Shown piece after piece: positions 2,492-22,563 of a stretch of 34,406 nucleotides of DNA; within the stretch, counting starts at the first letter, position 1, and the number at the start of each line of letters is the position of its first letter. The stretch is from an uncultured Candidatus Bathyarchaeia archaeon (GTDB lineage: Archaea; Thermoproteota; Bathyarchaeia; Bathyarchaeales; Bathyarchaeaceae). The stretch spans positions 1 to 34,406 of the forward strand of contig CAYVVO010000012.1 of NCBI GenBank assembly GCA_964455275.1, in the 5' to 3' direction. The translations under genes and the position numbers were made by a program. The notes under the pieces were generated by a model. It saw only the letters and a list, made by a program, of their open reading frames with translations. It searched no databases and was not told where the DNA came from.

Positions 2492-3418
2492 TCACCAAAT
2501 TATGCCCATTTTTACTACGATATCACCAAAATATGGCTGACCGACTGCAACATCAACAATTTTATCGTTTTGCGGTTCTATGTAAATCAGTCCGATGTCA
2601 GTGGTGTTGAAACAGGCTATTGCATGGGCGCTATCATCAAATTCGATGTAAACGAAACCGCATCTGTAACCCATCTGAAACGCGTTGGTGTTGAAGTCGG
2701 CTGTGAAATCGTAGCAAACATAATCTGGAGTATACTCGTTTTCGTTTGTTCTATCTGAATTTATGAAGGCAATCGCCTCGGCATATGTTGGGTCCCTAAT
2801 GTACCAGCCGCTTCCAGCCCCATCCTCCACACCTTGAGCATACCCCGCATCATAGCCGGCTTGGTAGCTTTCAATCACCTCATTTTCTAATGACGTGATC
2901 TCAGTTTGGAGGCTTGTAATGTTGGCTTGTAACGTTGAAACTTGGTTTTCAAGAGCGGTTTTTTCGTTATTTAGTGAAGTAACTTCAGATTGGAGACTTG
3001 CTACTTGAGCTTCCAGAGCAACCTTATCGTTGTTCAATGAAGCTATTTCTGATTGGAGATCTGAGATGTTAGATTGCAAATTTGAAACTTGTGTTTCTAG
3101 TGTGCTCTTTTCGTTTTCTAGTGCAGTCACCTCAGTTTGGAGGCTTGTAATGTTGGCTTGTAACGTTGAAACTTGGTTTTCAAGAGCGACTTTCTCATTG
3201 GTCAATGAAGCGATTTCCGATTGGAGACCTGAAATGTTAAATTGTAAATTTGCTACCTGCGCTTCTAAACTAAACCTTTCATCTTCAAGTCCAGAAATCT
3301 GATCTGCTTTCATCTGCAGTTCATGGTCTTTCTGGTTAACCGCCATTACAGCTCCAGCAACTGCAACACATAGAACAACGCAAATCAAACTGAGCGCTAC
3401 GATTTTCTTATCAATCAT
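2492..3418 (-). CDS. membrane-anchored coiled-coil stalk protein with C-terminal transglutaminase-like (Cys/His) domain
   Basis: The ORF track gives 2492..3697, but its first 93 codons run across the tRNA at 3550..3626. The ATG at 3418 starts MIDKKIVALSLICVVLCVAVAGAVMAV (TM anchor). About 190 aa of LQSEI(A/T)SL.NEK..LE.QV repeats follow. The globular end contains YVCYDF...SAHAIACF...IEPQND. Confidence 0.75.
   Translation of the reverse strand: MIDKKIVALSLICVVLCVAVAGAVMAVNQKDHELQMKADQISGLEDERFSLEAQVANLQFNISGLQSEIASLTNEKVALENQVSTLQANITSLQTEVTALENEKSTLETQVSNLQSNISDLQSEIASLNNDKVALEAQVASLQSEVTSLNNEKTALENQVSTLQANITSLQTEITSLENEVIESYQAGYDAGYAQGVEDGAGSGWYIRDPTYAEAIAFINSDRTNENEYTPDYVCYDFTADFNTNAFQMGYRCGFVYIEFDDSAHAIACFNTTDIGLIYIEPQNDKIVDVAVGQPYFGDIVVKMGIIW
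2900..3188. repeat. exact 58-bp direct repeat (2900..2957 and 3131..3188, offset 231 bp = 77 codons) inside the coiled-coil CDS
   Basis: Both copies read ctcagtttggaggcttgtaatgttggcttgtaacgttgaaacttggttttcaagagcg. Flanking units are degenerate copies (gattggagac... recurs). Confidence 0.95.
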
Positions 3419-3549
3419 TACGCATTTCCTCCAAACCACTGAAATACATGATTCCTTACGAAACAATATATACGCTTCGCAACCTGAAAACCTTTCTATC
3501 CTCAAACAGCACCAAAATCTAACATAAAAACAGGGGTCCACCGCAAGAA

Positions 3550-3626
3550 TGGAGCCTCGGGCGGGATTTGATCCCGCGACCAACAGCTTACGAGGCTGCC
3601 GCTCTACCGGGCTGAGCCACCGAGGC
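3550..3626 (-). tRNA. tRNA-Thr (anticodon CGU), CCA encoded
   Basis: Identical to the tRNA at 49..125 at 76 of 77 positions. The only difference is anticodon position 34 (loop CUCGUAA). A T-run (TGTTTTTATG) follows downstream. Confidence 0.9.
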
Positions 3627-3822
3627 GTTTCCAGTGAATTGATTCCATAACACATTTTTAAGACGTTCGGGGGGCAAACAAGCCCCTGCAGAGGCATCCA
3701 TGAAATCCTCTGTTATGTTCCTGAAATAAATAATGATTGTGGAGCATTCGATGTTTGTGTATGTGGCTGCAGCGTCTACACGCCTATGAAGTCAAGAAGT
3801 TGGCGTTCCCTCTGTATGGGAC

Positions 3823-5487
3823 TCATTTTTTGTCTGCCTTCATGAAGAAGAAAAGAATCACTCCAATTATGGCGGCTGCGGCTATCACTGCTACAATCAG
3901 TACTATTATGGAGAAGTCTGGTTGCGGAGGCTCTGCCCCCTCGGCTATGGTGAAGTAAACTGTTTCAGACGTTCCAGTTTTTCCATCTGTATCCTCTGCG
4001 TAAAGTGTTATTCTGTGCTCGCCATAAGCTAGGTCGGATAACTTTATGTCTTCAGTGATTGTGACGTTTGCTTGGTCGTCTAGGCTGTATTTTATCCATG
4101 AGGTTGTTTTGCTCACGGTGAATTTTAAGGAAACAGAGTTTACTGTGTATGTCTTGTTTTCTGGTGAATCAATGAAGATGGCGGGGGGGCTTCCATAAGG
4201 CATAAGCGGAAAATTGTCTTGGTTGTTCTGGTTAATAATGTAAGGCGTATCTCCTAATTCGTCGCTGCCTGTCTGGTTTCGGCTCGCTCCGCTCCTCGCA
4301 TCGACACCCGTATAGTCGCTCCAATAATTACCGCCTACAGGATAGCCAACATCCCAGGTGTTTATTGAGACCGCTACAGAATAGTTTTCCCCACTAACAT
4401 CGTAAACCTGTATCTTGTTATCGATAAAATAGTTGCCTCTAATCATGTTATATGAGGACTCCATAAAGCCGATTCCAACGTTGTTGTCTGTTATGTTGTT
4501 TAGCATAATGGTGTTTTGGAGAGAGTTGAAGAGGAAGATGCCATCTGCGCCGTTAGTTATAACATTTGTAGATATGCTGTTAAGGTTTGAAGCGTTACTG
4601 AACTGTATTCCTCTCTCGTTGTCTGTTATGTTGTTTGTACTAATGTAGTTGTCGGAAGACGCAAAGAGTCCTATTCCAGAGTAATTGTCCGTTATCTGAT
4701 TTTCATATAATGTCGACCCTGTTGTGTAAGCCAATAGTATGCCATGCCCATTGCCGGTGAGTTCCAGATGATGGACTGTTATGTTTTTGCAGTTCACGAG
4801 GGCGAGATAACCTACATCTGGAAAAGTGACCGAATTTATGACCAGATTACTTTCGCTAATCAGATAGTAGACTTTTTTGCCGTTGACTGTGTTTGAATTA
4901 TCAATTTCATTATCGAAGTGTGAAGGCTCGTCGCCATAAACCGCGAGATTATAATTATTGTCCATTTTGTTGTCTCTAAGTATATTTTTTGAAGACAAGA
5001 AGATGTTGATACCTATGCCGTTGTTTGTTATGTTGTTTCCAGTAATGGTGTTTTGTGAGGCTTCGTTAAGGTAGAGACCATAATTGTTGTGTGCTAAGGT
5101 GTTTCCAGATATGATGTTTTGTGAAGCGCCCTCAAGGTAGATACCGTAAAAGCTGAATCCTATTTGTAAGTTCTTGATTGTCACGTTGTTTCTGTACGAC
5201 AGGTCTATTCCTCTTTCTCCTTGTCCTGAAAGATAGTAGCCTGCGCCATCAACTACAATGTTATTACGTTGAACTACAAGATAGAAACTGTCAATGTTAT
5301 CTGTGAAGGTGTAGATGTCTCCAGCCTGTTGAATAGGAGCTGTAGTATTTGTTGAAGTGACAATGCTTCCATCACTTAAAATGTAAATGAATCCCTCAAT
5401 ATCTTGTGAGTTAACGGGCTGAGTGTTAACTGCACATAACGAAATTATGGTTAAGACAACTAGAAAAATAACCTTACTTGTGTTCAC
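3823..5487 (-). CDS. secreted right-handed parallel beta-helix (NosD/PbH1-like) repeat protein with C-terminal TM anchor
   Basis: GTG start is preceded by GGGAGAGG. Signal peptide MNTSKVIFLVVLTIISLCAVNT. Many N-x-I-x-x-N beta-helix rungs (NNITNNGIGI, NNITDNERGI, NNITDNNVGI). GNYWSDY...DNFPLMPY module. Tail PQPDFSIIVLIVAVIAAAAIIGVILFFFMKADKK. Confidence 0.85.
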   Translation of the reverse strand: MNTSKVIFLVVLTIISLCAVNTQPVNSQDIEGFIYILSDGSIVTSTNTTAPIQQAGDIYTFTDNIDSFYLVVQRNNIVVDGAGYYLSGQGERGIDLSYRNNVTIKNLQIGFSFYGIYLEGASQNIISGNTLAHNNYGLYLNEASQNTITGNNITNNGIGINIFLSSKNILRDNKMDNNYNLAVYGDEPSHFDNEIDNSNTVNGKKVYYLISESNLVINSVTFPDVGYLALVNCKNITVHHLELTGNGHGILLAYTTGSTLYENQITDNYSGIGLFASSDNYISTNNITDNERGIQFSNASNLNSISTNVITNGADGIFLFNSLQNTIMLNNITDNNVGIGFMESSYNMIRGNYFIDNKIQVYDVSGENYSVAVSINTWDVGYPVGGNYWSDYTGVDARSGASRNQTGSDELGDTPYIINQNNQDNFPLMPYGSPPAIFIDSPENKTYTVNSVSLKFTVSKTTSWIKYSLDDQANVTITEDIKLSDLAYGEHRITLYAEDTDGKTGTSETVYFTIAEGAEPPQPDFSIIVLIVAVIAAAAIIGVILFFFMKADKK

Positions 5488-5712
5488 TTTTTTCCTCTCC
5501 CATATTGAATATAATTGTCATTGCACCAGAACCTCTACATTCATGTAATGTTTTAAGGTTGCTGCTTCAACAATAAATCTCGTCATATTAGTCTTTGGAT
5601 ATAAAAGTTTTTCAGAATTAAACCCACATCCAAAGCCATCAACGTTAAACTTCCCCCTAACAGGTATTTTTAAGACATTCAGAAGCAAATAGTACCTGCA
5701 GAGGTTCCCAAG

Positions 5713-8658: not shown

Positions 8659-11151
8659 TTATTTTTGTTTTTTGAGTGTCATGTAGGCTATTAGACCTAT
8701 GACCACGCCGACGGCTGCGATTATCAGTATGACTAGGTCGATTGTCAGATATGCTGGTATTTCTGGAATTGATGGGTATGCTGGCATCTGGTTTACGGTT
8801 GTCTGCGCAATCTCTGCTGCGCTGGGAACATCTACTTCTGCTGGCGCTTCGTCTACACCAAATGTGGTTGTTGCCTGTGAGATGCAGTAAGATTTGGAGC
8901 CTTCGAACATTGCAGTGACATGGTATTCGCCGACAACGCTGGGAGCCCACATGTGGCTGAACACGCCATTTTCATCGGTTGTAACGGTGGCTGAGTACCA
9001 TTCTCCATTCGGATCTTGTATTTTTATAAACACTTCGACACCTTCAACTTCATATGTAGTGGGCCACTGCATGTACACGTAATGCATCCAGTCGGTCATG
9101 TTTTCGTCGGCTACTGCTGGAACACCGTTTGGAAATCTTAGTTGCAATGCGATGTCTTTTGTGCCCGGAGATACATCCATTACTGTGCCCTTTATCATTA
9201 CACTGCTTCCGAGTGAAATAACGTCGTTTTGGATTGAAACTGTGGTTGAGCTTGGACCTTTACCTATGGCGTATAAGCGATTATCGTATCCGTTTAATCC
9301 TACTATTGTGCTGTCTCCGATCATTACGTGTCCGCCCCACCAGTTGTTTATCCAGCTAAGCTCCCAGATTTTTGTTCCATTTTCAACATCAAGAACGACT
9401 AATGGACCGCCTCTAGGTATAGGATTAATTGGTGAATGCTCTGAATAGGATAAACAGATTTTTCCATCAGCGAGGAAATGGTATGCGATGTGGAATTTGT
9501 TGCTCCATGTCATTTCAGAGTATTGGTCTAGTACATCATAGGTCCACAAGACTTTTCCAGTTTCAAGGTCGTAGCAAGTTACTATTCCGCTAGCGCGACC
9601 GGTGAAGAATTTTCCATAGCCGTAAGCGGGACCATACCATTTGTCATAGAAGGCTAGGTAGCCTTCTGGTTCAGTTGTCCATTTTAAGTCACCAGTGGTC
9701 AGAGAGAAAGCATGGTATGTTAGAGTCTCTTTTGATGATACTATCATGACATCATTTTCTGGGATAGTGTCTGAGTAAACCAAGGTTGTACCGCTTTCTG
9801 GCAATGTTACAGTTTTCTTGAAAACCATAGTTCCTTCATTTCCCGGAGATACGTCAATTGCCCAATTAGTGACATCTGGAGATGTGCCGCCAAAAATTCC
9901 GCCAGAAGAACTACCAACTATTTTGTCAAATAGATGATATGAACAAGCTGATCCAGGCAGGTCTGTGGGTATATCTATGGTCCATTCGATTCCTGTTGTG
10001 GCGTCGTAAGTGTTTCCTTGTGGTCTCCAGCTGCCCTCATCTGAAACTACTCTACTGGAGTTCCATAATGACAGCGTTCCTGACCTAGTGTTTAAGGTAT
10101 ATCGATAGATTTCGCCTTTAGGTCCATACAGATTATAGCCACCAGGCACGTTTTCCATTGTGTATTCCCATCGTCCTGTCAGTGGGTCATATGCCTTCCA
10201 TGTTCCAGAACCAGCAGCTCCAAAACCTCCGGCACCGCTATCTGTCCATAGGTAGCCGAAAACACCGTGGTAGTTGTATGAGTCCCAAAAGAATGTTTGC
10301 CCAAATTGTAGTCTTTCATTATTCCAGTTTTTGACCCACAGTTCTTCACCAGTTTTTAGATCTACGGCAACAACGTCCTGATCAAGTTCAGGGTTGCTTC
10401 CTTGCCATTCGTATCTGTTGTAGTATAGTACTCCGCTTATTATTACGGAGCCCCTAAATTTTTCTTCGTACGCGTCTCCCATTTCGTATTGAACATTTCC
10501 AAGTTCGACGCTAACTAGTCCTCCTTGTGTGTATGGTTTTGTCCAAAGAACATGTCCGGTTTCGGGTGCATCAGCGTTGCCTGCATGATATTTCGGAATA
10601 GGTGGCATTATATAGGTTCCTGCTGGTCTTAGCCAATCTCCAGAAATTTCTGACCATTCATAGAATTGTGCGTTTATTGGTCGCGTCCAGTATTCTGTTG
10701 GAAGAGAAACACCCGGCCAATAAGGTAGTGATTCTTCTTGCACTACAACTACTAGTTCATCAGTTTCGCTAGCTAACATATTGCCTTGTTCAGGGAAGTG
10801 ACCTTTTACGATGTATTCTCCAACCAGAGTGGGAGTGTAAGGAACTCCAGTTCCTCCAGTGGCATCTGTTGTTATGTCAGAAAGTGTTTCAGTTTGACCG
10901 TCTGGTCTTTGTATGGTTATGCTTAAGCCTTCCCAGCCCATATGCGTGCTGGAGAGTTGTGCTGAAATTCCAACATGGAATAACAGTTGTTCGTTTACTG
11001 GTGCAGGATTAGGTATGGCACCGATATATGGGTAGGTTTTTTTTCCTTGCTGAGCGTTAATAGTCGGAAAAATTGTAAGAATCGACGAAAGCGTTAGAAC
11101 TGTTAGCAAAATAATCATTGAAACTTTGTATCTTTTTCTTAATATTTTCAT
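8659..11151 (-). CDS. secreted PQQ-like beta-propeller repeat protein with Ig-like domains and C-terminal TM anchor
   Basis: Signal peptide MKILRKRYKVSMIILLTVLTLSSILTIFPTINA. Repeated propeller motifs VVAVDLKTGEELW, HAFSLTTGDLKW, TCYDLETGKVLW, LVVLDVENGTKIW, RLYAIGKG. Tail IPEIPAYLTIDLVILIIAAVGVVIGLIAYMTLKKQK. GGAG lies 9 nt before the ATG. Confidence 0.85.
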   Translation of the reverse strand: MKILRKRYKVSMIILLTVLTLSSILTIFPTINAQQGKKTYPYIGAIPNPAPVNEQLLFHVGISAQLSSTHMGWEGLSITIQRPDGQTETLSDITTDATGGTGVPYTPTLVGEYIVKGHFPEQGNMLASETDELVVVVQEESLPYWPGVSLPTEYWTRPINAQFYEWSEISGDWLRPAGTYIMPPIPKYHAGNADAPETGHVLWTKPYTQGGLVSVELGNVQYEMGDAYEEKFRGSVIISGVLYYNRYEWQGSNPELDQDVVAVDLKTGEELWVKNWNNERLQFGQTFFWDSYNYHGVFGYLWTDSGAGGFGAAGSGTWKAYDPLTGRWEYTMENVPGGYNLYGPKGEIYRYTLNTRSGTLSLWNSSRVVSDEGSWRPQGNTYDATTGIEWTIDIPTDLPGSACSYHLFDKIVGSSSGGIFGGTSPDVTNWAIDVSPGNEGTMVFKKTVTLPESGTTLVYSDTIPENDVMIVSSKETLTYHAFSLTTGDLKWTTEPEGYLAFYDKWYGPAYGYGKFFTGRASGIVTCYDLETGKVLWTYDVLDQYSEMTWSNKFHIAYHFLADGKICLSYSEHSPINPIPRGGPLVVLDVENGTKIWELSWINNWWGGHVMIGDSTIVGLNGYDNRLYAIGKGPSSTTVSIQNDVISLGSSVMIKGTVMDVSPGTKDIALQLRFPNGVPAVADENMTDWMHYVYMQWPTTYEVEGVEVFIKIQDPNGEWYSATVTTDENGVFSHMWAPSVVGEYHVTAMFEGSKSYCISQATTTFGVDEAPAEVDVPSAAEIAQTTVNQMPAYPSIPEIPAYLTIDLVILIIAAVGVVIGLIAYMTLKKQK

Positions 11152-11421
11152 TCGTTTTTCTCCTTTTTTATTTTTTGTTGAGTTTGGTTGCCTTTGACAA
11201 CTGATCTGTCAGCGTGCGCATGCATATGCTAGCTGCCAGAGGCTCCCTCAAACCCATCGCACAGAGCTATACCCCATTTTGTTTTTAAAGTTATTCTAAC
11301 CTTTAACAGAAATTTTCATTTGGGTTTGGGATTGAAATTTTAACTTGGAAAAAGGGGAGTTTGCGTGAGAATAGTGGATGTGTCTCCACCGTTTAGTGAA
11401 CAGCCAGTCCCTTAACGTTTT

Positions 11422-11757
11422 TCATGCTTTTACTTTCCTGAACAGTTTCTTGCTTTTAATCTCGCAAACTGGGTCATGAAGCGGTTTTTTTGTGTTGGAA
11501 AACAAGGATTGCTGCCCCCCCAAAACGCCGACTGCCAAGATAACCCAAAGCCAAAGCTCTTGAGAGAAAGCACTTGAACTTTCGTTTGGTGACAGGCGCA
11601 TGCTGATTTGATGGGTGCTATGCAAATAGCTGAATGCAACAAGCCAAGAATCATCCACAGGTGCTATTGAATAGTTGAGTTGATTTTCGTTCCATATCGC
11701 CTTTAATGAAGTCGCCAGAAGCACAGTAACGATAAGATTCTTCAATTTTATGTACAT
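11422..11757 (-). CDS. small hypothetical protein with signal-peptide-like N-terminus and C-terminal TM (uncertain)
   Basis: ATG start, MYIKLKNLIVTVLLATSLKA, later LWLWVILAVGVLGG plus a basic tail. It sits directly downstream of the triple palindrome array. I recognise no homology. Confidence 0.35.
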   Translation of the reverse strand: MYIKLKNLIVTVLLATSLKAIWNENQLNYSIAPVDDSWLVAFSYLHSTHQISMRLSPNESSSAFSQELWLWVILAVGVLGGQQSLFSNTKKPLHDPVCEIKSKKLFRKVKA

Positions 11758-11805
11758 TCCTATTTCTATTAATAATACGCTTTTTCATCGATTAAACGGG
11801 TTTTT

Positions 11806-11868
11806 GTAAAGTTTTCTTGACAAGACTTGGTCAAGGTTTCTTGACTAGATTGGTCAAGTTTTCTTGAC
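11806..11868. promoter_or_regulatory. array of three 16-bp palindromes GTCAAG-N4-CTTGAC, 23-24 bp phasing
   Basis: Units are 11806-11821 GTAAAGTTTTCTTGAC, 11830-11845 GTCAAGGTTTCTTGAC and 11853-11868 GTCAAGTTTTCTTGAC. The proximal unit is 49 nt from the ATG at 11757. Confidence 0.6.
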
Positions 11869-12043
11869 AAAAACGCTTTTCTTCCCCTTCGAGTAGAAAC
11901 ATGGACTGATGGCTCCAACACAGGAAATGAAACTCACCAAAAGTAAGTTGCTTTACAAGTTTCATTTTTCATTCCCCAAATGCCTGTGTAGGAGCCTCAG
12001 CAAACTCCATCATTTTAAGCTCATGAACAGCTTTTGGAAGCAG

Positions 12044-12412
12044 CTATCTTTTTTCTACAATGATTTTTGTTCCGCTCTTGACTTGTTCGAACAGTTCCAG
12101 ATTCTTGGTCACTTTGCCGATTATGTTGACGGGACTGTATGGCTGGGTTTCACCGTAGAATATGCAGAAGGCGCTTCCCATTGGCCAGTAGGCTAAGGTT
12201 CCCTTCTCCACTGTTGGTTTAGCCTTTTCGTTACCCATCTTCACAGGAATACCGAAGTAAACTTCTTGTTGCCACAGGGCTGCTAGACCCTCCAATGGAA
12301 GCTGCCTGATTATGGCATCTGTAGTCCGTGGAGATCGAATGCGAACAAGTTCTCCTTCCGCTTCTCCAACGTTCTCAATAATGAATCTGATGGATAGACG
12401 AGAAACACTCAT
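12044..12412 (-). CDS. cyclophilin-like fold family protein (DUF369-type)
   Basis: The pattern ...TTDAIIRQLPLEG.ALWQQEVYFGIPV...EKGTLAYWPMGSAFCIFYG matches the small cyclophilin-like family as I remember it. Confidence 0.6.
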   Translation of the reverse strand: MSVSRLSIRFIIENVGEAEGELVRIRSPRTTDAIIRQLPLEGLAALWQQEVYFGIPVKMGNEKAKPTVEKGTLAYWPMGSAFCIFYGETQPYSPVNIIGKVTKNLELFEQVKSGTKIIVEKR

Positions 12413-17723: not shown

Positions 17724-19175
17724 CTATGGAGTTGAACGGAATAGCCTCTTTTTTACGATTATTGCAGATAAAGTAGCCATCAAGAATAAGGGCAAGATAA
17801 TCCATGAAGGAAACTCTGGAATTGCATCCGTTCCAATTATTTCTACTGTTTTGATGCGGTGCTGGTAAGTAAAGTATAGGTAGGTGTTGTTTGCTTCTTC
17901 GTTGACTGCTGGAGCTACCGAGGTGCCATCGACCAAAACAGTCCAGTTGCCTTCTGAATGTAACAGGTCTTTTGGTATTGTTACTCTGCAGAATCCTGTT
18001 GTTCCGGTTTCGCCCTCCACATTAAACCGCACTAGAGCAGTTTCAGGGTTGAAACTGAAATCTGAAACAGTTGAGTTACTCATAACATTAACACCATAAC
18101 TAGTCCCTTCCCATGTACCAGCATCAAAGAATGTGATTGGAGCCATGAGTGGGTAATTGTCCCTGTTGTTCTCATTTATGATGTAAGAAGTATCTCCTAT
18201 TCCATCTCCGTCACTGTCGGTTCCGTTGTAATCGCTCCAATAGTTGCCTTCTAGACCGTTATCCCAGAAATTACGGGATAAGCCAGCACCGGCGTTGTGA
18301 GCATTGTTAATAAAATTGTTATGATAGAAAGTGTTGTTGACTGCGCTAGAACTCAAACTCACTCCCATTCCCTCATCAATTTCGGGAATATTATAATTCA
18401 TTATGTAGTTATCATGAAAAACATTGTTAGTGCCATGATAACCAATAGCGATGACAAAAGGACCGCCGTAGTTTTCTCCGTTCATTATGTTTCCTGAAAA
18501 CGTATTATGAGAACTCGTATCCCCAGAACTGGTCATTGAGAAGCCAAGACACGTATTGTTATGTATCACATTTGAATTTGAAAACCGTAAATAGATATAC
18601 TCGTTAAGGACGGTGTTTCCGACAATAGTATTGAATGAAGAGTTCCTTAAACTAAATCTGTAATTTACTTTATTTTTGTTGATGTTGTTATTCGAACCAA
18701 TCAGCGTTATGCCTTTTGTTATGGTACAATTGATTATTTGAGTTCCGTTTCCCATCACGAGAATTATCCCACCGGGTTTAGGCGCAAGTGTGAGATTCGT
18801 TAGTTTGATATTGTTGGCATTGATTTCGATGGCATTTGCATAACTATAGAATGCTTGCATAGTTATCCATGTGACATTGTATGCTGGATGTAGGTTAATT
18901 ATTGTGTTTTCGGGGTTTTCGCCTATAATTGAGATTGTTTTGTTGATAAGTATGGTTTGATTTATAGGGCCTTCATAGATTCCGTTTCTAACGAAAATAG
19001 TATCGCCATCCTCAATAACTCGAATAGCTTCTTGAATAGAAGAATAATCGTCTGGAACAATAAGGGTCTTAGCTTCTGCTTTTGCAGTAAAGTTTTGTGA
19101 AATAGATGCCAGAATAAAGGAAAGAACCAGCAATAACACAATTATTGCTTTGGTTTTCTTTATATTAGAAAGCAT
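17724..19175 (-). CDS. secreted parallel beta-helix (NosD-like) repeat protein with PEF-type C-terminal anchor
   Basis: Signal peptide MLSNIKKTKAIIVLLLVLSFILASISQNFTAKA. SIQEAIRVIEDGDTIFVRNGIY. Beta-helix rungs. GNYWSDYNGTDSDGDGIGDTSYIINENNRDNYPLM. Tail IPEFPSWIILPLFLMATLSAIIVKKRLFRSTP. Paralogous to 3823..5487. Confidence 0.85.
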   Translation of the reverse strand: MLSNIKKTKAIIVLLLVLSFILASISQNFTAKAEAKTLIVPDDYSSIQEAIRVIEDGDTIFVRNGIYEGPINQTILINKTISIIGENPENTIINLHPAYNVTWITMQAFYSYANAIEINANNIKLTNLTLAPKPGGIILVMGNGTQIINCTITKGITLIGSNNNINKNKVNYRFSLRNSSFNTIVGNTVLNEYIYLRFSNSNVIHNNTCLGFSMTSSGDTSSHNTFSGNIMNGENYGGPFVIAIGYHGTNNVFHDNYIMNYNIPEIDEGMGVSLSSSAVNNTFYHNNFINNAHNAGAGLSRNFWDNGLEGNYWSDYNGTDSDGDGIGDTSYIINENNRDNYPLMAPITFFDAGTWEGTSYGVNVMSNSTVSDFSFNPETALVRFNVEGETGTTGFCRVTIPKDLLHSEGNWTVLVDGTSVAPAVNEEANNTYLYFTYQHRIKTVEIIGTDAIPEFPSWIILPLFLMATLSAIIVKKRLFRSTP

Positions 19176-19216
19176 AACAACCTGTTTTATGGTGAATATA
19201 AGGTAAAAGTTTTTTT

Positions 19217-19256
19217 GTCAAATTTTCTTGACTAAATTTTGTCAAGATTTTTTGAC
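19217..19256. promoter_or_regulatory. array of two 16-bp palindromes of the same GTCAAG-N4-CTTGAC family, 24 bp phasing
   Basis: Units are 19217-19232 GTCAAATTTTCTTGAC and 19241-19256 GTCAAGATTTTTTGAC. The proximal unit is 42 nt from the ATG at 19175. A TATA-like TTATAT lies between them. Confidence 0.6.
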
Positions 19257-19360: not shown

Positions 19361-22156
19361 CTATAAATAAATTACTTCGTAAACTGCTCCTAAAAACAAG
19401 TCGTCCTGAACCGTGCCTTCTATATAGTTAGAGCCGTAGTAGGGAAATCCGTTCACAACCCAATATTGGAAGACTATCGCACCGCCGGGCCAAGCCCAAG
19501 CCACATAGGGTACCTCGAAGCTGTGATCTCCCTCTGATACTTGGTAGGTGTACCATGTGGGCCCGACCTCCTCGCCGTCTATTTCAAAAGGTACCTCGAA
19601 TTGATGATACTGACCGTTATCTAAGTAGACGGAGCCCGTTGAAACATCATGATATGGTAAATAGTGAGCAGTAAGCTCGTGGCCATCAGAAATGTACATG
19701 TTTGCTGGACGGCTGCCATAAATGCTTCCATCGTAACTGAAGTGAGTGAAGACGTAGCCTGGAATGTCACTGACATTGATTGTATAGACTTTACCAATTA
19801 ATCTGGAGATGCCTGGACTAGAATAGGGTTGACCATCTATGTAGAAGGTAGGATAAAGCGGATTGTTATGGTTGTCTTTAGCATCCCAAGTCAACAGAGG
19901 CTGATATAATACTTTGTATCCGTTGCCATAAACTACAAGCCGTCCATCACCAGTTTCATAACCCGGTCTTTGATGCCAGTCACCATCAAAATACGTTGGC
20001 CATATTGCTGTAAAATTATTGTGGAGCGGTGTTTGATCGAAATCATTTCCATAAAAGCACGTATGCGAAGCATCATCTAAAGCTGCCTTTATTGATACAT
20101 AGTCTGCCAAAGCAAAACTAAAGAATTGCTTAAGCCAGTAATGGTAAGGTGCCCAACTGCCTTCAACCGCCTGACTTAGAGATGCTGACCCCCCGACAAA
20201 GCCTATATAACAGAAATCACCGTTGTCCGCAGCTGCGTAACCATCATCACTCATGTGAAGGAGGGTTGTAAACCCAGGCATGGTTTTCGGTTTTACAAGT
20301 CGGTAAGTCCAAGCGAAAGGCATTCCCCGTGCTCTTCCGCCGACTAATCCTTGTGTGGTAACATGCTGTTTGGGGGGGGCACCAAGAGTGTCTTCAATAT
20401 GTGCTGAGTTGCAGGTATTAATGAAAGCAAAGAACGTTTTACCCGAAGTTCGTTGAAATATTTGCATGTCAAAGACAGCGTTTTCATAGGATACGTTCTC
20501 CCATTGATAAACTGGGCCTTCAAAAGTGCCATCGTTGTCTTCAAACATATAATGAAATTCATTTGGATCCTCTAACCAAGGTATATCTACTTGCCCATTG
20601 CCGTGATCGAAATCAACTACCGCCACGCGCGGGTAATTCGCCTCACTGCTTTCAATCTGAGCTAAAATAGTGTCTCTGTACGAACCTTTTTCTCCTTGGT
20701 AGTCGCTAGCAGAATAACCGTTAGCCCAGAATTGCACTTTAAGGAAATCAGCAGTTTCTTCTTGTTGCGCAACCTCATCTGGGTGCTTGCGCCAGCTAAA
20801 CCCGAGGTTGTCATTCCATGCTCCTTCACTTTCGGAACCCCAAATCATGGCACGCCCATATAATGGTGTTGCATTAACAATCGACACCGACATCACAACC
20901 ATTACTGTTGAAAAGAATAGCAGAAGGCAAAGCAGCACACCACTAACCTTGAAGGAGCGTAATTTCGGCAAATTGAAAGACAGTGTTCCTTTTTTCTTCT
21001 TGCTCAAATAGACTGGAACCGCAACTAGCATAAAGACAATAACAGCTGGAAGCGCTATCCACGAGAGCGATAACGAGCTTGACTGAGCTTCATCAGCAGT
21101 AGACCCATCGTCTAACGCAACAGCTACTATATCATCATAAGTAGCGACCAAGTCAGGCGGAGGATCCATTGTGGAAAACCGTTCTTTGATGAAACAGATT
21201 TCTCCTGTGTCAGCCCAAGCGTAAACATTTATTCCGTAAACATTGCCCGGGTAAAACTTGTCCAAACTAACCCAGATGTGCCGCATCGGATAAAGCTCCA
21301 AGAGATCCTTGCTGCGCGCTTTATCCATATAATGAGAGGGAGCAAAGATTGTTTCCCAAACCATCGCATTTGTCACATTATACTTCAATTCAACAGTGTC
21401 ATTTTCAATTTCCATTTTCCCCCATGTGAGAGTCTTGGCTTGTGCTATCGCAATGTCAATCGTCTGCTGCTCAGAAAAGTACACAGTTGTGCTACCGATT
21501 TTATACAGGCCCCAGTTGTCAATAAAGTATTTTAGAACACCATTCTTGTAACGCAATGCTACGCACTTGTCTGGCGCTTCAATACCGTTAAACGTGTATG
21601 TCCACCGGAAAGTTGTAGAGTCTCTTGAGGTAGTCACTTCAAGTTTTCTGTTTCCAGAAATTGATGTTAAGTTTTTGTTTAAGTCAACAGTAGCTAGTGT
21701 CGATCTTAATTCTCCATAAAACGAGTCTCCAGTATGGCTGCGATAATTCCCAAGGAAGTCTTTAGCCATTTCAAGAGGGTTAGCAGTTGCTTCTGTCATC
21801 CACGGTGAGCCGTCAACTTCTAGAACATGTATCTTTTGTAGATTTCCGTTTATGAAAGTATAGAGCATGTCTAGCTTGCTTTCATTGGATTGTAAATTGT
21901 AGCGTATCCTCTCTTGAGGAAGAACGTCTAAGTACGAATCTTGCGGGAATTCTTTTGTAGTAGTAGCATATTTTGTTAGGTCAAGACCAACCACGTCATT
22001 TGAGATCACTAATCCTTTCTCTTGAAGCGTTTCTTCTGCCGCGTATACAGGGGTTGAAAGAAATGAATAAAGGCAAGAGATCAACAGCAAAGAAAATAGA
22101 ACCATTGAAAGCAGAAAGTGTTTTTTCACATATTTTGTCATTTTCGTTACATCCAT
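19361..22156 (-). CDS. large surface protein: signal peptide, ectodomain 1, TM hairpin, ectodomain 2 with clan-CD-like His/Cys signature, C-terminal beta-sandwich repeats
   Basis: The ORF opens at 22231 (GTG). ATG codons at 22156 and 22141 precede the signal peptide KKHFLLSMVLFSLLLISCLYSFLSTPVYA. TM helices are WIALPAVIVFMLVAVPVYL and VLLCLLLFFSTVMVVMSVSIV, flanking the basic loop SKKKKGTLSFNLPKLRSFK. VAVVDFDHGNG and TFFAFINTCNSAH are present. Confidence 0.8.
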   Translation of the reverse strand: MDVTKMTKYVKKHFLLSMVLFSLLLISCLYSFLSTPVYAAEETLQEKGLVISNDVVGLDLTKYATTTKEFPQDSYLDVLPQERIRYNLQSNESKLDMLYTFINGNLQKIHVLEVDGSPWMTEATANPLEMAKDFLGNYRSHTGDSFYGELRSTLATVDLNKNLTSISGNRKLEVTTSRDSTTFRWTYTFNGIEAPDKCVALRYKNGVLKYFIDNWGLYKIGSTTVYFSEQQTIDIAIAQAKTLTWGKMEIENDTVELKYNVTNAMVWETIFAPSHYMDKARSKDLLELYPMRHIWVSLDKFYPGNVYGINVYAWADTGEICFIKERFSTMDPPPDLVATYDDIVAVALDDGSTADEAQSSSLSLSWIALPAVIVFMLVAVPVYLSKKKKGTLSFNLPKLRSFKVSGVLLCLLLFFSTVMVVMSVSIVNATPLYGRAMIWGSESEGAWNDNLGFSWRKHPDEVAQQEETADFLKVQFWANGYSASDYQGEKGSYRDTILAQIESSEANYPRVAVVDFDHGNGQVDIPWLEDPNEFHYMFEDNDGTFEGPVYQWENVSYENAVFDMQIFQRTSGKTFFAFINTCNSAHIEDTLGAPPKQHVTTQGLVGGRARGMPFAWTYRLVKPKTMPGFTTLLHMSDDGYAAADNGDFCYIGFVGGSASLSQAVEGSWAPYHYWLKQFFSFALADYVSIKAALDDASHTCFYGNDFDQTPLHNNFTAIWPTYFDGDWHQRPGYETGDGRLVVYGNGYKVLYQPLLTWDAKDNHNNPLYPTFYIDGQPYSSPGISRLIGKVYTINVSDIPGYVFTHFSYDGSIYGSRPANMYISDGHELTAHYLPYHDVSTGSVYLDNGQYHQFEVPFEIDGEEVGPTWYTYQVSEGDHSFEVPYVAWAWPGGAIVFQYWVVNGFPYYGSNYIEGTVQDDLFLGAVYEVIYL

Positions 22157-22563
22157 TTTTTTGTTTTTCTGCACGGCTTTGATCTCCGTGCCATCTCTTT
22201 CTGTCCTTCCCTTAGGACTAGGTGGTGACACACCCCCGAAACAGTCAGCCTCGGCTTAACTGCCCATCGAAATTAATGGTCGATGGAAGAGGAAAAAATA
22301 TCAAATTTTAACTGTGAGTAATGCTTTTTTTCACATCCCCCACTTCAAACAAATGTAGATTTAATAGGTTAATATTTTTGACAATAAAAGTGTAAAAAAC
22401 ATAAATTGTTGAAATATTTGTTTTGTATTCGTTTAAGCTTTTGAATTAACAACAGAATTGCACTTAACTAGTCAAAAAAATAAGTATAACAAATGAACAA
22501 CGCATCAAATTATTCAGATTCTTTTGGACAGAGTTTTTTGAGCAGTCTCTATTTGTTGATTAT

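Follow-up and report, generated by a model that had tools for sequence, protein, structure and literature searches.

A phased palindromic promoter module upstream of secreted and surface-protein genes in Bathyarchaeia

The stretch considered here, 34,406 nt of contig CAYVVO010000012.1 (the window), carries a family of 16-base palindromes, GTCAAG-N4-CTTGAC, at only two places, locus A (11806-11868) and locus B (19217-19256), which together hold five units in non-coding DNA (Table 1). Locus B stands before the gene of a NosD-like beta-helix protein, 105 nt past the stop codon of the gene for a 956-residue membrane protein, while locus A stands before a short open reading frame (ORF) of doubtful standing, with the gene of a PQQ-like beta-propeller protein beyond it. 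The repeated palindromes are genuine and form part of a promoter control element that is conserved across Bathyarchaeia. The closest named relatives of the thermosome encoded in the window are 'Candidatus Bathyarchaeota archaeon' (95% identity) and 'Candidatus Bathyarchaeum sp.' (91%), and UPF0147, ROK kinase and Lrp/AsnC proteins are encoded as well. The host is thus archaeal, and the promoters of the window are read in terms of B recognition element (BRE) and TATA box rather than as bacterial ones. Identical copies of the region are present in several Joint Genome Institute (JGI) metagenomes.

Palindromic units at two loci of the window

An earlier note, made from the letters of the window, had described five recurring palindromes confined to two sites, and the counts bear this out. 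Specifically, the exact pattern GTCAA-N6-TTGAC occurs 4 times in the whole window (at 11830, 11853, 19217 and 19241) against 0.06 expected, a number reached by none of the 100 shuffles used for comparison, and the fifth unit, at 11806, differs by one mismatch (GTAAAGTTTTCTTGAC). A relaxed scan for pairs scored every unit on the 12 positions of GTCAAG/CTTGAC, tolerated no more than 4 mismatches in one unit and 5 in the pair, and took spacings of 23-26; it returned 3 pairs against 0.01 expected, all of them within loci A and B. The near-equal distance from unit to start codon to which the note had drawn attention is likewise real, at 41 nt for locus B (ATG at 19175; given there as 42) and 48 nt for locus A (ATG at 11757; given as 49). 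The T-rich core of the palindrome does lie on the + strand in all five units of the window, as had been noticed, but its orientation relative to the promoter varies across loci: the asymmetric core (AAAC or GTTT) is usually alike in both units of a pair, T-form units stand beside the promoter in five of the compared loci (L015, L032, L040, L054 and L073), and some pairs are mixed.

The simpler of the two arrangements is found at locus B, where the units lie 24 bp apart from start to start and the minus strand from 19232 to 19202 reads GTCAAGAAAATTTGAC-AAAAAAA-CTTTTACC, an exact fit to the design described below, in which AAAAAAA and CTTTTACC would act as BRE and TATA box. The TTATAT box that had been proposed between unit and start codon exists as a hexamer (minus strand, 19201-19196), but the conserved TATA position is occupied by CTTTTACC, with TTATAT 8 nt beyond it; judged by this position, CTTTTACC rather than TTATAT is probably the TATA box of locus B. 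This choice would put the predicted transcription start only about 5 nt ahead of the ATG.

The gene that follows encodes a protein with ...IPEFPSWIILPLFLMATLSAIIVKKRLF in its C-terminal part. Its PEFPSW, membrane helix and basic tail resemble the PEF-CTERM signal of archaeosortase substrates, for which NCBIfam reported no hit. Seven homologues of this protein were picked by identity alone (63, 57, 49, 46, 46, 41 and 39%) and their contigs were fetched. In 7/7 of them, two units with the A-rich/CTTTTA flank precede the gene itself or the operon to which it belongs, at unit spacings of 24, 33, 45, ~35, 34, 35 and 34. On this comparison of sequences, the module upstream of NosD-like genes is a phylogenetic footprint that spans deep divergence.

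Table 1. Features of the window at loci A and B (strand "." for the units of locus A)
Feature	Positions	Strand	Remarks
Locus B proximal unit	19217..19232	-	+ strand GTCAAATTTTCTTGAC, gene strand GTCAAGAAAATTTGAC; exact match; abuts the BRE-like stretch; centre at about -44 from the predicted start
Locus B distal unit	19241..19256	-	+ strand GTCAAGATTTTTTGAC, gene strand GTCAAAAAATCTTGAC; exact match; position of the distal unit of the conserved module; centre at about -68 from the predicted start
Locus B putative core promoter	19202..19216	-	BRE-like AAAAAAA (19216-19210) and TATA-like CTTTTACC (19209-19202); fits the consensus, with the TATA-like box at the fixed distance of 7 nt from the proximal unit
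Target gene B, 483-aa NosD-like beta-helix protein	17724..19175	-	Pfam NosD; signal-peptide-like N-terminus; C-terminal PEFPSW, membrane helix and basic tail
Locus A unit 1	11853..11868	.	+ strand GTCAAGTTTTCTTGAC; exact match; proximal unit for the +-strand promoter flank
Locus A unit 2	11830..11845	.	GTCAAGGTTTCTTGAC; exact match; 23 and 24 bp from its neighbours
Locus A unit 3	11806..11821	.	+ strand GTAAAGTTTTCTTGAC; one mismatch; the unit proximal to the flank on the minus strand
Locus A minus-side BRE/TATA-like flank	11791..11805	-	AAAAACC and CGTTTAAT; fits the module consensus; absent at the syntenic L221 locus
Locus A plus-side BRE/TATA-like flank	11869..11883	+	AAAAACG and CTTTTCTT; kept in L221 (AAAAAGG CTTTTCTT) and L058 (AAAAAAC CTTTTCTT)
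111-aa ORF, doubtful gene	11422..11757	-	Signal-peptide-like start; hydrophobic segment near the C-terminus; nearest minus-side ORF of locus A
830-aa PQQ-like beta-propeller/Ig-like surface protein	8659..11151	-	Pfam PQQ_2 and Big_1; signal peptide; anchor at the C-terminus; may be controlled indirectly by locus A
Candidate structured non-coding transcript	11900..12052	+	Downstream of the plus-side flank; no credible ORF; T6 run at the end; transcription putative

Module design and target genes across Bathyarchaeia

A scan across species took one genome per GTDB species (185,579 species) and searched for GTCAA-N6-TTGAC, a gap of 6-10 nt and a second GTCAA-N6-TTGAC, for which our own arithmetic at uniform composition gives about 3 chance hits in 596 Gb. 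It yielded at least 120 loci, of which at least 47, from about 27 metagenome-assembled genomes (MAGs) with up to 5 loci each, are of Bathyarchaeia type and share one design. Among the matches listed, the 47 Bathyarchaeia-type loci comprise 42 labelled Bathyarchaeia, Bathyarchaeota or MCG-6, 2 labelled 'uncultured archaeon' and 3 low-GC contigs in bacterial bins; the remaining matches listed are bacterial and have other explanations. The three low-GC contigs (L012 and L076 from a Sulfotelmatobacter bin, L050 from a Muribaculaceae bin) have a GC content of 0.33-0.40, perfect Bathyarchaeia-type modules and signal-peptide targets, and are probably mis-binned archaeal contigs. The same module was not found in the viral collection, where the single hit, an unrelated one, is a direct repeat within coding sequence on a high-GC contig. 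In the window, the only Rfam matches at gathering score are two tRNA genes. A literature search on the motif and on Bathyarchaeia promoters or palindromes returned nothing relevant. We found no description of this motif, although a transcription-factor site that defines a regulon is a known kind of element; what is unusual is how rigid the module is, how its units are phased and how strongly surface proteins prevail among its targets.

For a closer view of the design, 48 Bathyarchaeia promoters were aligned with their sites oriented by the flanks, which gave the consensus TTA-GTCAAGAAAnnTTGAC-TAAgnnTTA-GTCAAGAAAcCTTGAC-(A/G)A(A/G)AAC-g-CTTTTAtc. The module consists of two, sometimes three, 16-bp GTCAAG-N4-CTTGAC units, the last of which is followed by exactly 7 A-rich nucleotides and then by a CTTTTA/CTTTAA box, with the start codon a further ~30-50 nt beyond. 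Both loci of the window obey this 7-nt rule. Outside the units, conservation is highest in the TTTA core of the box and at positions +2 and +5 behind the unit, where A is almost invariant, which gives the A-rich stretch the look of a BRE; the CTTTTA/CTTTAA box would correspond to a TATA-like element. The centre of an archaeal TATA box lies about 26 nt ahead of the transcription start, which would place the unit centres near -44 and -68. As a further comparison, 281 Bathyarchaeia promoters without the module were examined for enriched hexamers. TTTAAA, TTAAAT and TTTATA are enriched 6-8x there and CTTTTA only 3.2x, so that the module promoters share a distinct, probably weaker TATA box.

The spacing of the units is as regular as their distance to the promoter. 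Each palindrome has dyad symmetry with half-site centres 10 bp apart, i.e. about one helical turn. In the genome scan, which sees gaps of 6-10 nt only, the start-to-start spacings are 24 (n=23), 25 (n=21) and 26 (n=1), and sites found outside this gap constraint add 33-35 and 43-45, plus sums, with no intermediate spacings. Steps of about 10 bp keep the same rotational relation between the palindromes, a fixed phase that cooperative binding of two dimers, or wrapping round an oligomer, would require; as such, the phasing would be hard to explain without a protein.

The genes that follow the module have much in common. Signal-peptide-like N-termini, called by a crude hydrophobic-stretch rule on naively called ORFs, are found in 35/42 promoter-side ORFs against 47/213 other long ORFs of the same loci (odds ratio 17.7, p = 6e-14). 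At the C-terminus, at least 23/42 targets also carry a membrane helix and after it a basic tail, and in some of them, the NosD-like protein included, PEFPSW stands before the helix. By Pfam, the targets include NosD/beta-helix proteins (8), PQQ-type propellers (7), Kelch (2) and Big_13 (2), and most others are without a family. The genes upstream of the modules are unrelated to one another among the loci compared; judged by their N-termini, several look like housekeeping genes, with three that resemble ABCE1, pelota and aRF1. It follows that the module travels with the downstream gene. The idea of a surface-protein regulon thereby holds well beyond the window, with the module before signal-peptide proteins in about 27 MAGs in addition to the seven NosD-like homologues, and a conserved cis-element common to the promoters of secreted and surface proteins is strongly supported by the sequence comparisons.

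Tandem pairs of the same units also occur in bacteria. In Myxococcota and Acidobacteriota, a MarR-family gene and its divergent neighbour have tandem GTCAAG-N4-CTTGAC pairs with a spacing of 22-24 bp in the promoter between them, probably as the autoregulatory operator of that MarR clade. The MarR-family gene was scanned in L064, L069, L096, L117 and L123, where the divergent partner gene has ~230-330 residues in the loci inspected, and seven more loci (L017, L027, L052, L072, L081, L093 and L110) appear alike from their N-termini. Such pairs (e.g. in L064, L096, L117 and L123) indicate that a site of this kind suits a pair of winged-helix dimers; unlike the archaeal module, they stand beside the regulator's own gene in bacterial promoters with no BRE/TATA. 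Additionally, Limnohabitans and relatives (L022, L038, L049, L071, L075 and L116) carry TGTCAA-N6-TTGACA pairs beside a gene with a bchG-like N-terminus, and these pairs resemble the PpsR/CrtJ TGT-N12-ACA operators of photosynthesis gene clusters.

Locus A and the neighbouring genes

Locus A is more complex. What had been taken as one gene, 8659..11757, is in fact two ORFs of 830 and 111 residues that lie 270 nt apart, and the three units between 11806 and 11868 carry a BRE/TATA-like flank on either side. The plus-side type of flank is also found in L015, L040, L054, L073, L058 and L221. The last of these comes from a relative with a 95%-identical thermosome, in which the order of a cyclophilin-like gene, units and PQQ/Big gene (78% identical) is kept and the locus holds two perfect units, 34 bp apart. 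At this syntenic locus there is neither a 111-residue ORF nor a clear TATA box on the minus side, and the 111-residue ORF has no Pfam or NCBIfam hit and no homologue among the compared loci, L221 included.

The 830-residue protein has its orthologue in L221 likewise downstream of two units. Its gene has a TATA-like CTTTAAAAAC of its own, followed by a conserved ~125-nt leader and a Shine-Dalgarno sequence, and PQQ genes with their own TATA-like box (CTTTAAAAAC or TTTTAAAAAC) and this leader occur twice in L221 and once in the window. Direct drive of the 830-residue gene by locus A, which had been the first assumption, is unlikely given the syntenic L221 locus and the conserved box and leader of the PQQ genes. 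The upstream element itself (window ~11152-11295, minus strand; L221 6138-6291 and 8776-8950) runs from a TATA-like TTT(T)AAAAAC through the leader (…GGGGTATAGCTCT…GGCAGCTAGC.TATGCATGC…GATCAGTTGTCAAAGGCAAC) to the Shine-Dalgarno sequence; it has no Rfam match and may be a structured 5' leader.

On the plus side, the stretch downstream of the flank is conserved between the window (11900-12052, +) and L221 (9166-9400, +), and partly in the more distant L058 (~5130-5350, -). In the window it folds into a long hairpin whose minimum free energy (MFE) is -44.8 kcal/mol, compared with -30.0 kcal/mol in shuffled sequence (z = -4.0); across window, L221 and L058, 1 compensatory pair was counted by the fold tool. 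The hairpin stretch could belong to a module-driven small RNA or form a 3' structure of the convergent cyclophilin-like gene. The most conservative reading of these sequences takes locus A as a bidirectional module whose conserved output would be a + strand non-coding transcript, with the 111-residue ORF doubtful and any control of the 830-residue gene indirect or at a distance. The earlier view that both promoters drive secreted proteins fits locus B, with its NosD-like protein; at locus A the minus-side ORF is doubtful and the conserved flank faces the + strand.

Several observations concern the neighbours of the modules. The 956-residue membrane protein upstream of the NosD-like gene (19361-22231, -) is split into 2-3 ORFs in the otherwise identical contigs L002-L004; over residues ~70-280 it shares 30% identity with the extracellular portion of ArsR-type regulators with membrane helices (L094 and L121), and its homologues often lie next to modules or are their targets (L079, L104, L214, L215 and L219). 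Just upstream of the module of NosD homologues, L215 (~2180-2390) and L217 (~2200-2390) have a tRNA-like gene with a long insert, an apparent intron, and beyond it a divergent HxlR-type regulator gene. A second NosD/beta-helix protein with a signal peptide is encoded in the window at 3823-5487 (-), and the region upstream of it (5488-5620) has a promoter-like box, GAAAAAC-TTTTATAT, and no palindrome unit. Elsewhere in the window, a tRNA-Thr(CGU) gene (3550-3626, -) lies inside the 5' part of a 401-residue coiled-coil ORF (2492-3697, -), which indicates that the real start of that gene is downstream of the tRNA.

Proposed mode of action, candidate regulators and significance

The design of the module points to a protein. 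With high probability, though from sequence features, the units are binding sites of a dimeric sequence-specific DNA-binding protein, probably of the winged-helix type, within a conserved upstream control module of Bathyarchaeia promoters. In the proposed mechanism, two cooperating dimers on the phased palindromes would act as an upstream activating site, and occupancy of the module would switch on genes that are mostly for secreted or membrane-anchored surface proteins, the NosD-like gene at 17724-19175 among them. Protein binding, the preference for activation over repression and the position of the transcription start are all predictions of this model. Activation is favoured by the position of the units beside the BRE and by the distinct, probably weaker TATA box, since archaeal activators typically bind just upstream of the BRE and repressors over or downstream of the promoter (PMC5512572, PMC4706686).

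The described archaeal systems offer partial parallels. At the fla (archaellum) promoter of Methanococcus maripaludis and Pyrococcus furiosus, EarA sites are several short repeats just upstream of BRE/TATA (PMC5512572, PMC10665913), and it is the weakness of the core promoter that makes the activator necessary (PMC5512572). The Bathyarchaeia module shares the repeated sites directly upstream of the BRE/TATA of surface genes; EarA sites, however, are four 6-bp repeats at one operon in Euryarchaeota, whereas the module consists of 16-bp palindromes at many promoters. Ptr2 uses two adjacent sites. This Lrp-family protein of Methanocaldococcus jannaschii recruits TBP, and TFB-RF1 of P. furiosus recruits TFB, to sub-optimal promoters (PMC5937170). 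Their sites are, like the module, palindromic and upstream of TATA/BRE, but consensus and regulators differ and targets are few. The motif of TrmBL1, the Thermococcales glycolytic motif (TGM) TATCAC-N5-GTGATA, is bound by a winged-helix dimer and defines a multi-promoter regulon, in which sites upstream of BRE/TATA activate and downstream sites repress (PMC4706686). The module is likewise palindromic with a multi-promoter regulon, but the half-site and spacer of TGM differ and its sites are single, variably placed and tied to sugar metabolism, whereas those of the module are tandem, phased and at a fixed distance; identity of the module with TGM is ruled out by the different consensus sequence. 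Finally, the Sulfolobus ara-box is a conserved box directly upstream of BRE/TATA that is common to co-induced genes (PMC5512572); it resembles the module in position and differs in sequence, lineage and signal.

A number of points weigh against activation of a surface-protein regulon. A binding protein is deduced, as is the sign of regulation, and a unit in contact with the BRE could just as well keep TFB away. The signal-peptide rule is crude, and the 47 loci, which come from among the matches listed, were picked by the motif, albeit blind to context. Three other signal-peptide genes of the window have no unit at their own start, namely 3823-5487 (NosD), 19361-22231 (956 residues) and 8659-11151, so the module marks a subset and not the whole secretome, and a few modules precede non-secreted proteins, e.g. 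a transcription factor (L046) and possibly hemA (L102). Locus A, moreover, does not resemble the simple picture, with a doubtful ORF on its minus side and no ORF on its conserved side.

Of the alternatives, repression through the same architecture fares best, although it is unlikely. Dimers beside the BRE would exclude TFB/TBP and silence costly surface-protein genes until a signal arrives. The proximal unit ends at the upstream edge of the BRE-like stretch, where steric interference is conceivable, and the bacterial version of the tandem palindrome sits in divergent promoters of MarR-family genes, a family of mostly autorepressors. Characterized archaeal repressors, however, usually cover the BRE/TATA or the start, while activators are the ones that typically occupy sites immediately ahead of the BRE, and a non-generic, probably weak TATA box fits dependence on an activator.

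It is highly improbable that the palindromes belong to a dispersed mobile repeat, such as a miniature inverted-repeat transposable element (MITE), that landed near these genes by chance, a possibility that the earlier note had itself raised. Several copies per genome, the palindromic form and the well-conserved spacer in some genomes (TAAGCCWGG in CAZJBY) would suit such a repeat, but only the ~65-bp module is common to the loci, with unrelated upstream neighbours and no terminal repeats or target duplications beyond the units. In the loci compared, furthermore, the module is always promoter-proximal, at a fixed distance from the TATA box and oriented with the downstream gene; NosD-like homologues of as little as 39% protein identity still have it, with spacings that differ in phased steps, and the viral collection is without it.

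An action of the palindromes in RNA, as hairpins that terminate or stabilize the transcript of the upstream gene, can hardly be upheld either: a stem of 6 bp with a loop of 4 nt can arise from each unit and locus B follows the 956-residue gene closely, yet such stems would be short and weak, the place of the module is set by the BRE/TATA that follows rather than by the stop codons that precede, the module also stands between divergent genes, and the core is A-rich on the upstream gene's strand, which leaves no oligo-T terminator. A reading as bacterial promoters, in which TTGACA would be the -35 box for sigma-70 and TTATAT/TATATT the -10 box, is virtually excluded, for although each unit ends in TTGAC(A) and TATATT lies ~15 nt downstream at locus B, the host is archaeal (thermosome, UPF0147) and the 48 promoters share the A-rich stretch and CTTTTA at 7 nt and no hexamer at 16-18 nt.

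Returning to a DNA-binding activator, its identity was approached through the neighbourhoods of the modules, where the upstream genes are heterogeneous and no regulator is consistently adjacent among the loci compared. A first candidate is a 318-residue protein with an N-terminal Cys4 motif (Zn-ribbon) and 2-3 ArsR-like winged-helix domains, which is a direct target of the module in L046. Its family is strongly conserved in Bathyarchaeia (of 1481 hits, the best 120 each reach 63% identity or more), and the module, with one or both units clear, stands upstream of its homologues in 16/80 metagenomic loci, one of which has further copies in L126-L128. Most of the remaining homologues have a different, highly conserved operator of GTCAT half-sites, and no genome was found that shows both module-bearing surface-protein genes and the promoter class of the candidate's own gene. 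The GTCAT operator reads ATGAC-N4-GTCATA-N3/4-TATGAC-GCGT-GTCATGAC and lies ~100 nt upstream of the multi-winged-helix gene in L129-L132 and about 55 of the loci L133-L212; it occupies the divergent promoter between the gene of the ~315-residue regulator and a small gene (~118-128 residues), and its GTCA half-site is related to the GTCAAG of the module.

A second candidate family combines an ArsR-type winged helix with membrane helices and is encoded beside module-bearing genes in L094, L121 and L218 (1330-2361 in the last). Its own gene is preceded by a degenerate module in L218, but in L094 and L121 the geometry of its own promoter does not match the design; the case for this family as the cognate regulator is suggestive only. 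Neither candidate is encoded in the window, whose Lrp/AsnC gene (1957-2433) has no unit upstream in the relaxed pair scan and is linked to the motif by nothing. Taken together, these observations allow a joint reading, tentative and still improbable at present, of a class-wide 'cell-surface switch': the phased module, paired with a weak core promoter dedicated to it, would unite dozens of genes for secreted or surface-anchored proteins in each genome, and would also drive a structured small RNA (the + side of locus A) and, in one clade, the Zn-ribbon multi-winged-helix gene as an autoregulated master regulator, unless the regulator is an envelope-sensing, membrane-anchored ArsR-type factor.

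Bathyarchaeia are among the most abundant archaea of sediments and soils and have hardly been cultured, and their secreted and surface proteins are thought to be central to polymer degradation and to the interaction with their surroundings. To our knowledge, and as far as the literature goes that we found, nothing is known of gene regulation in this class. The module signature would make sets of co-regulated surface-protein genes predictable straight from MAGs, and the module itself offers a defined DNA bait for finding the regulator. As such, it also presents a compact and rigid natural case of helical phasing beside an archaeal core promoter, one that is testable in existing in vitro transcription systems.

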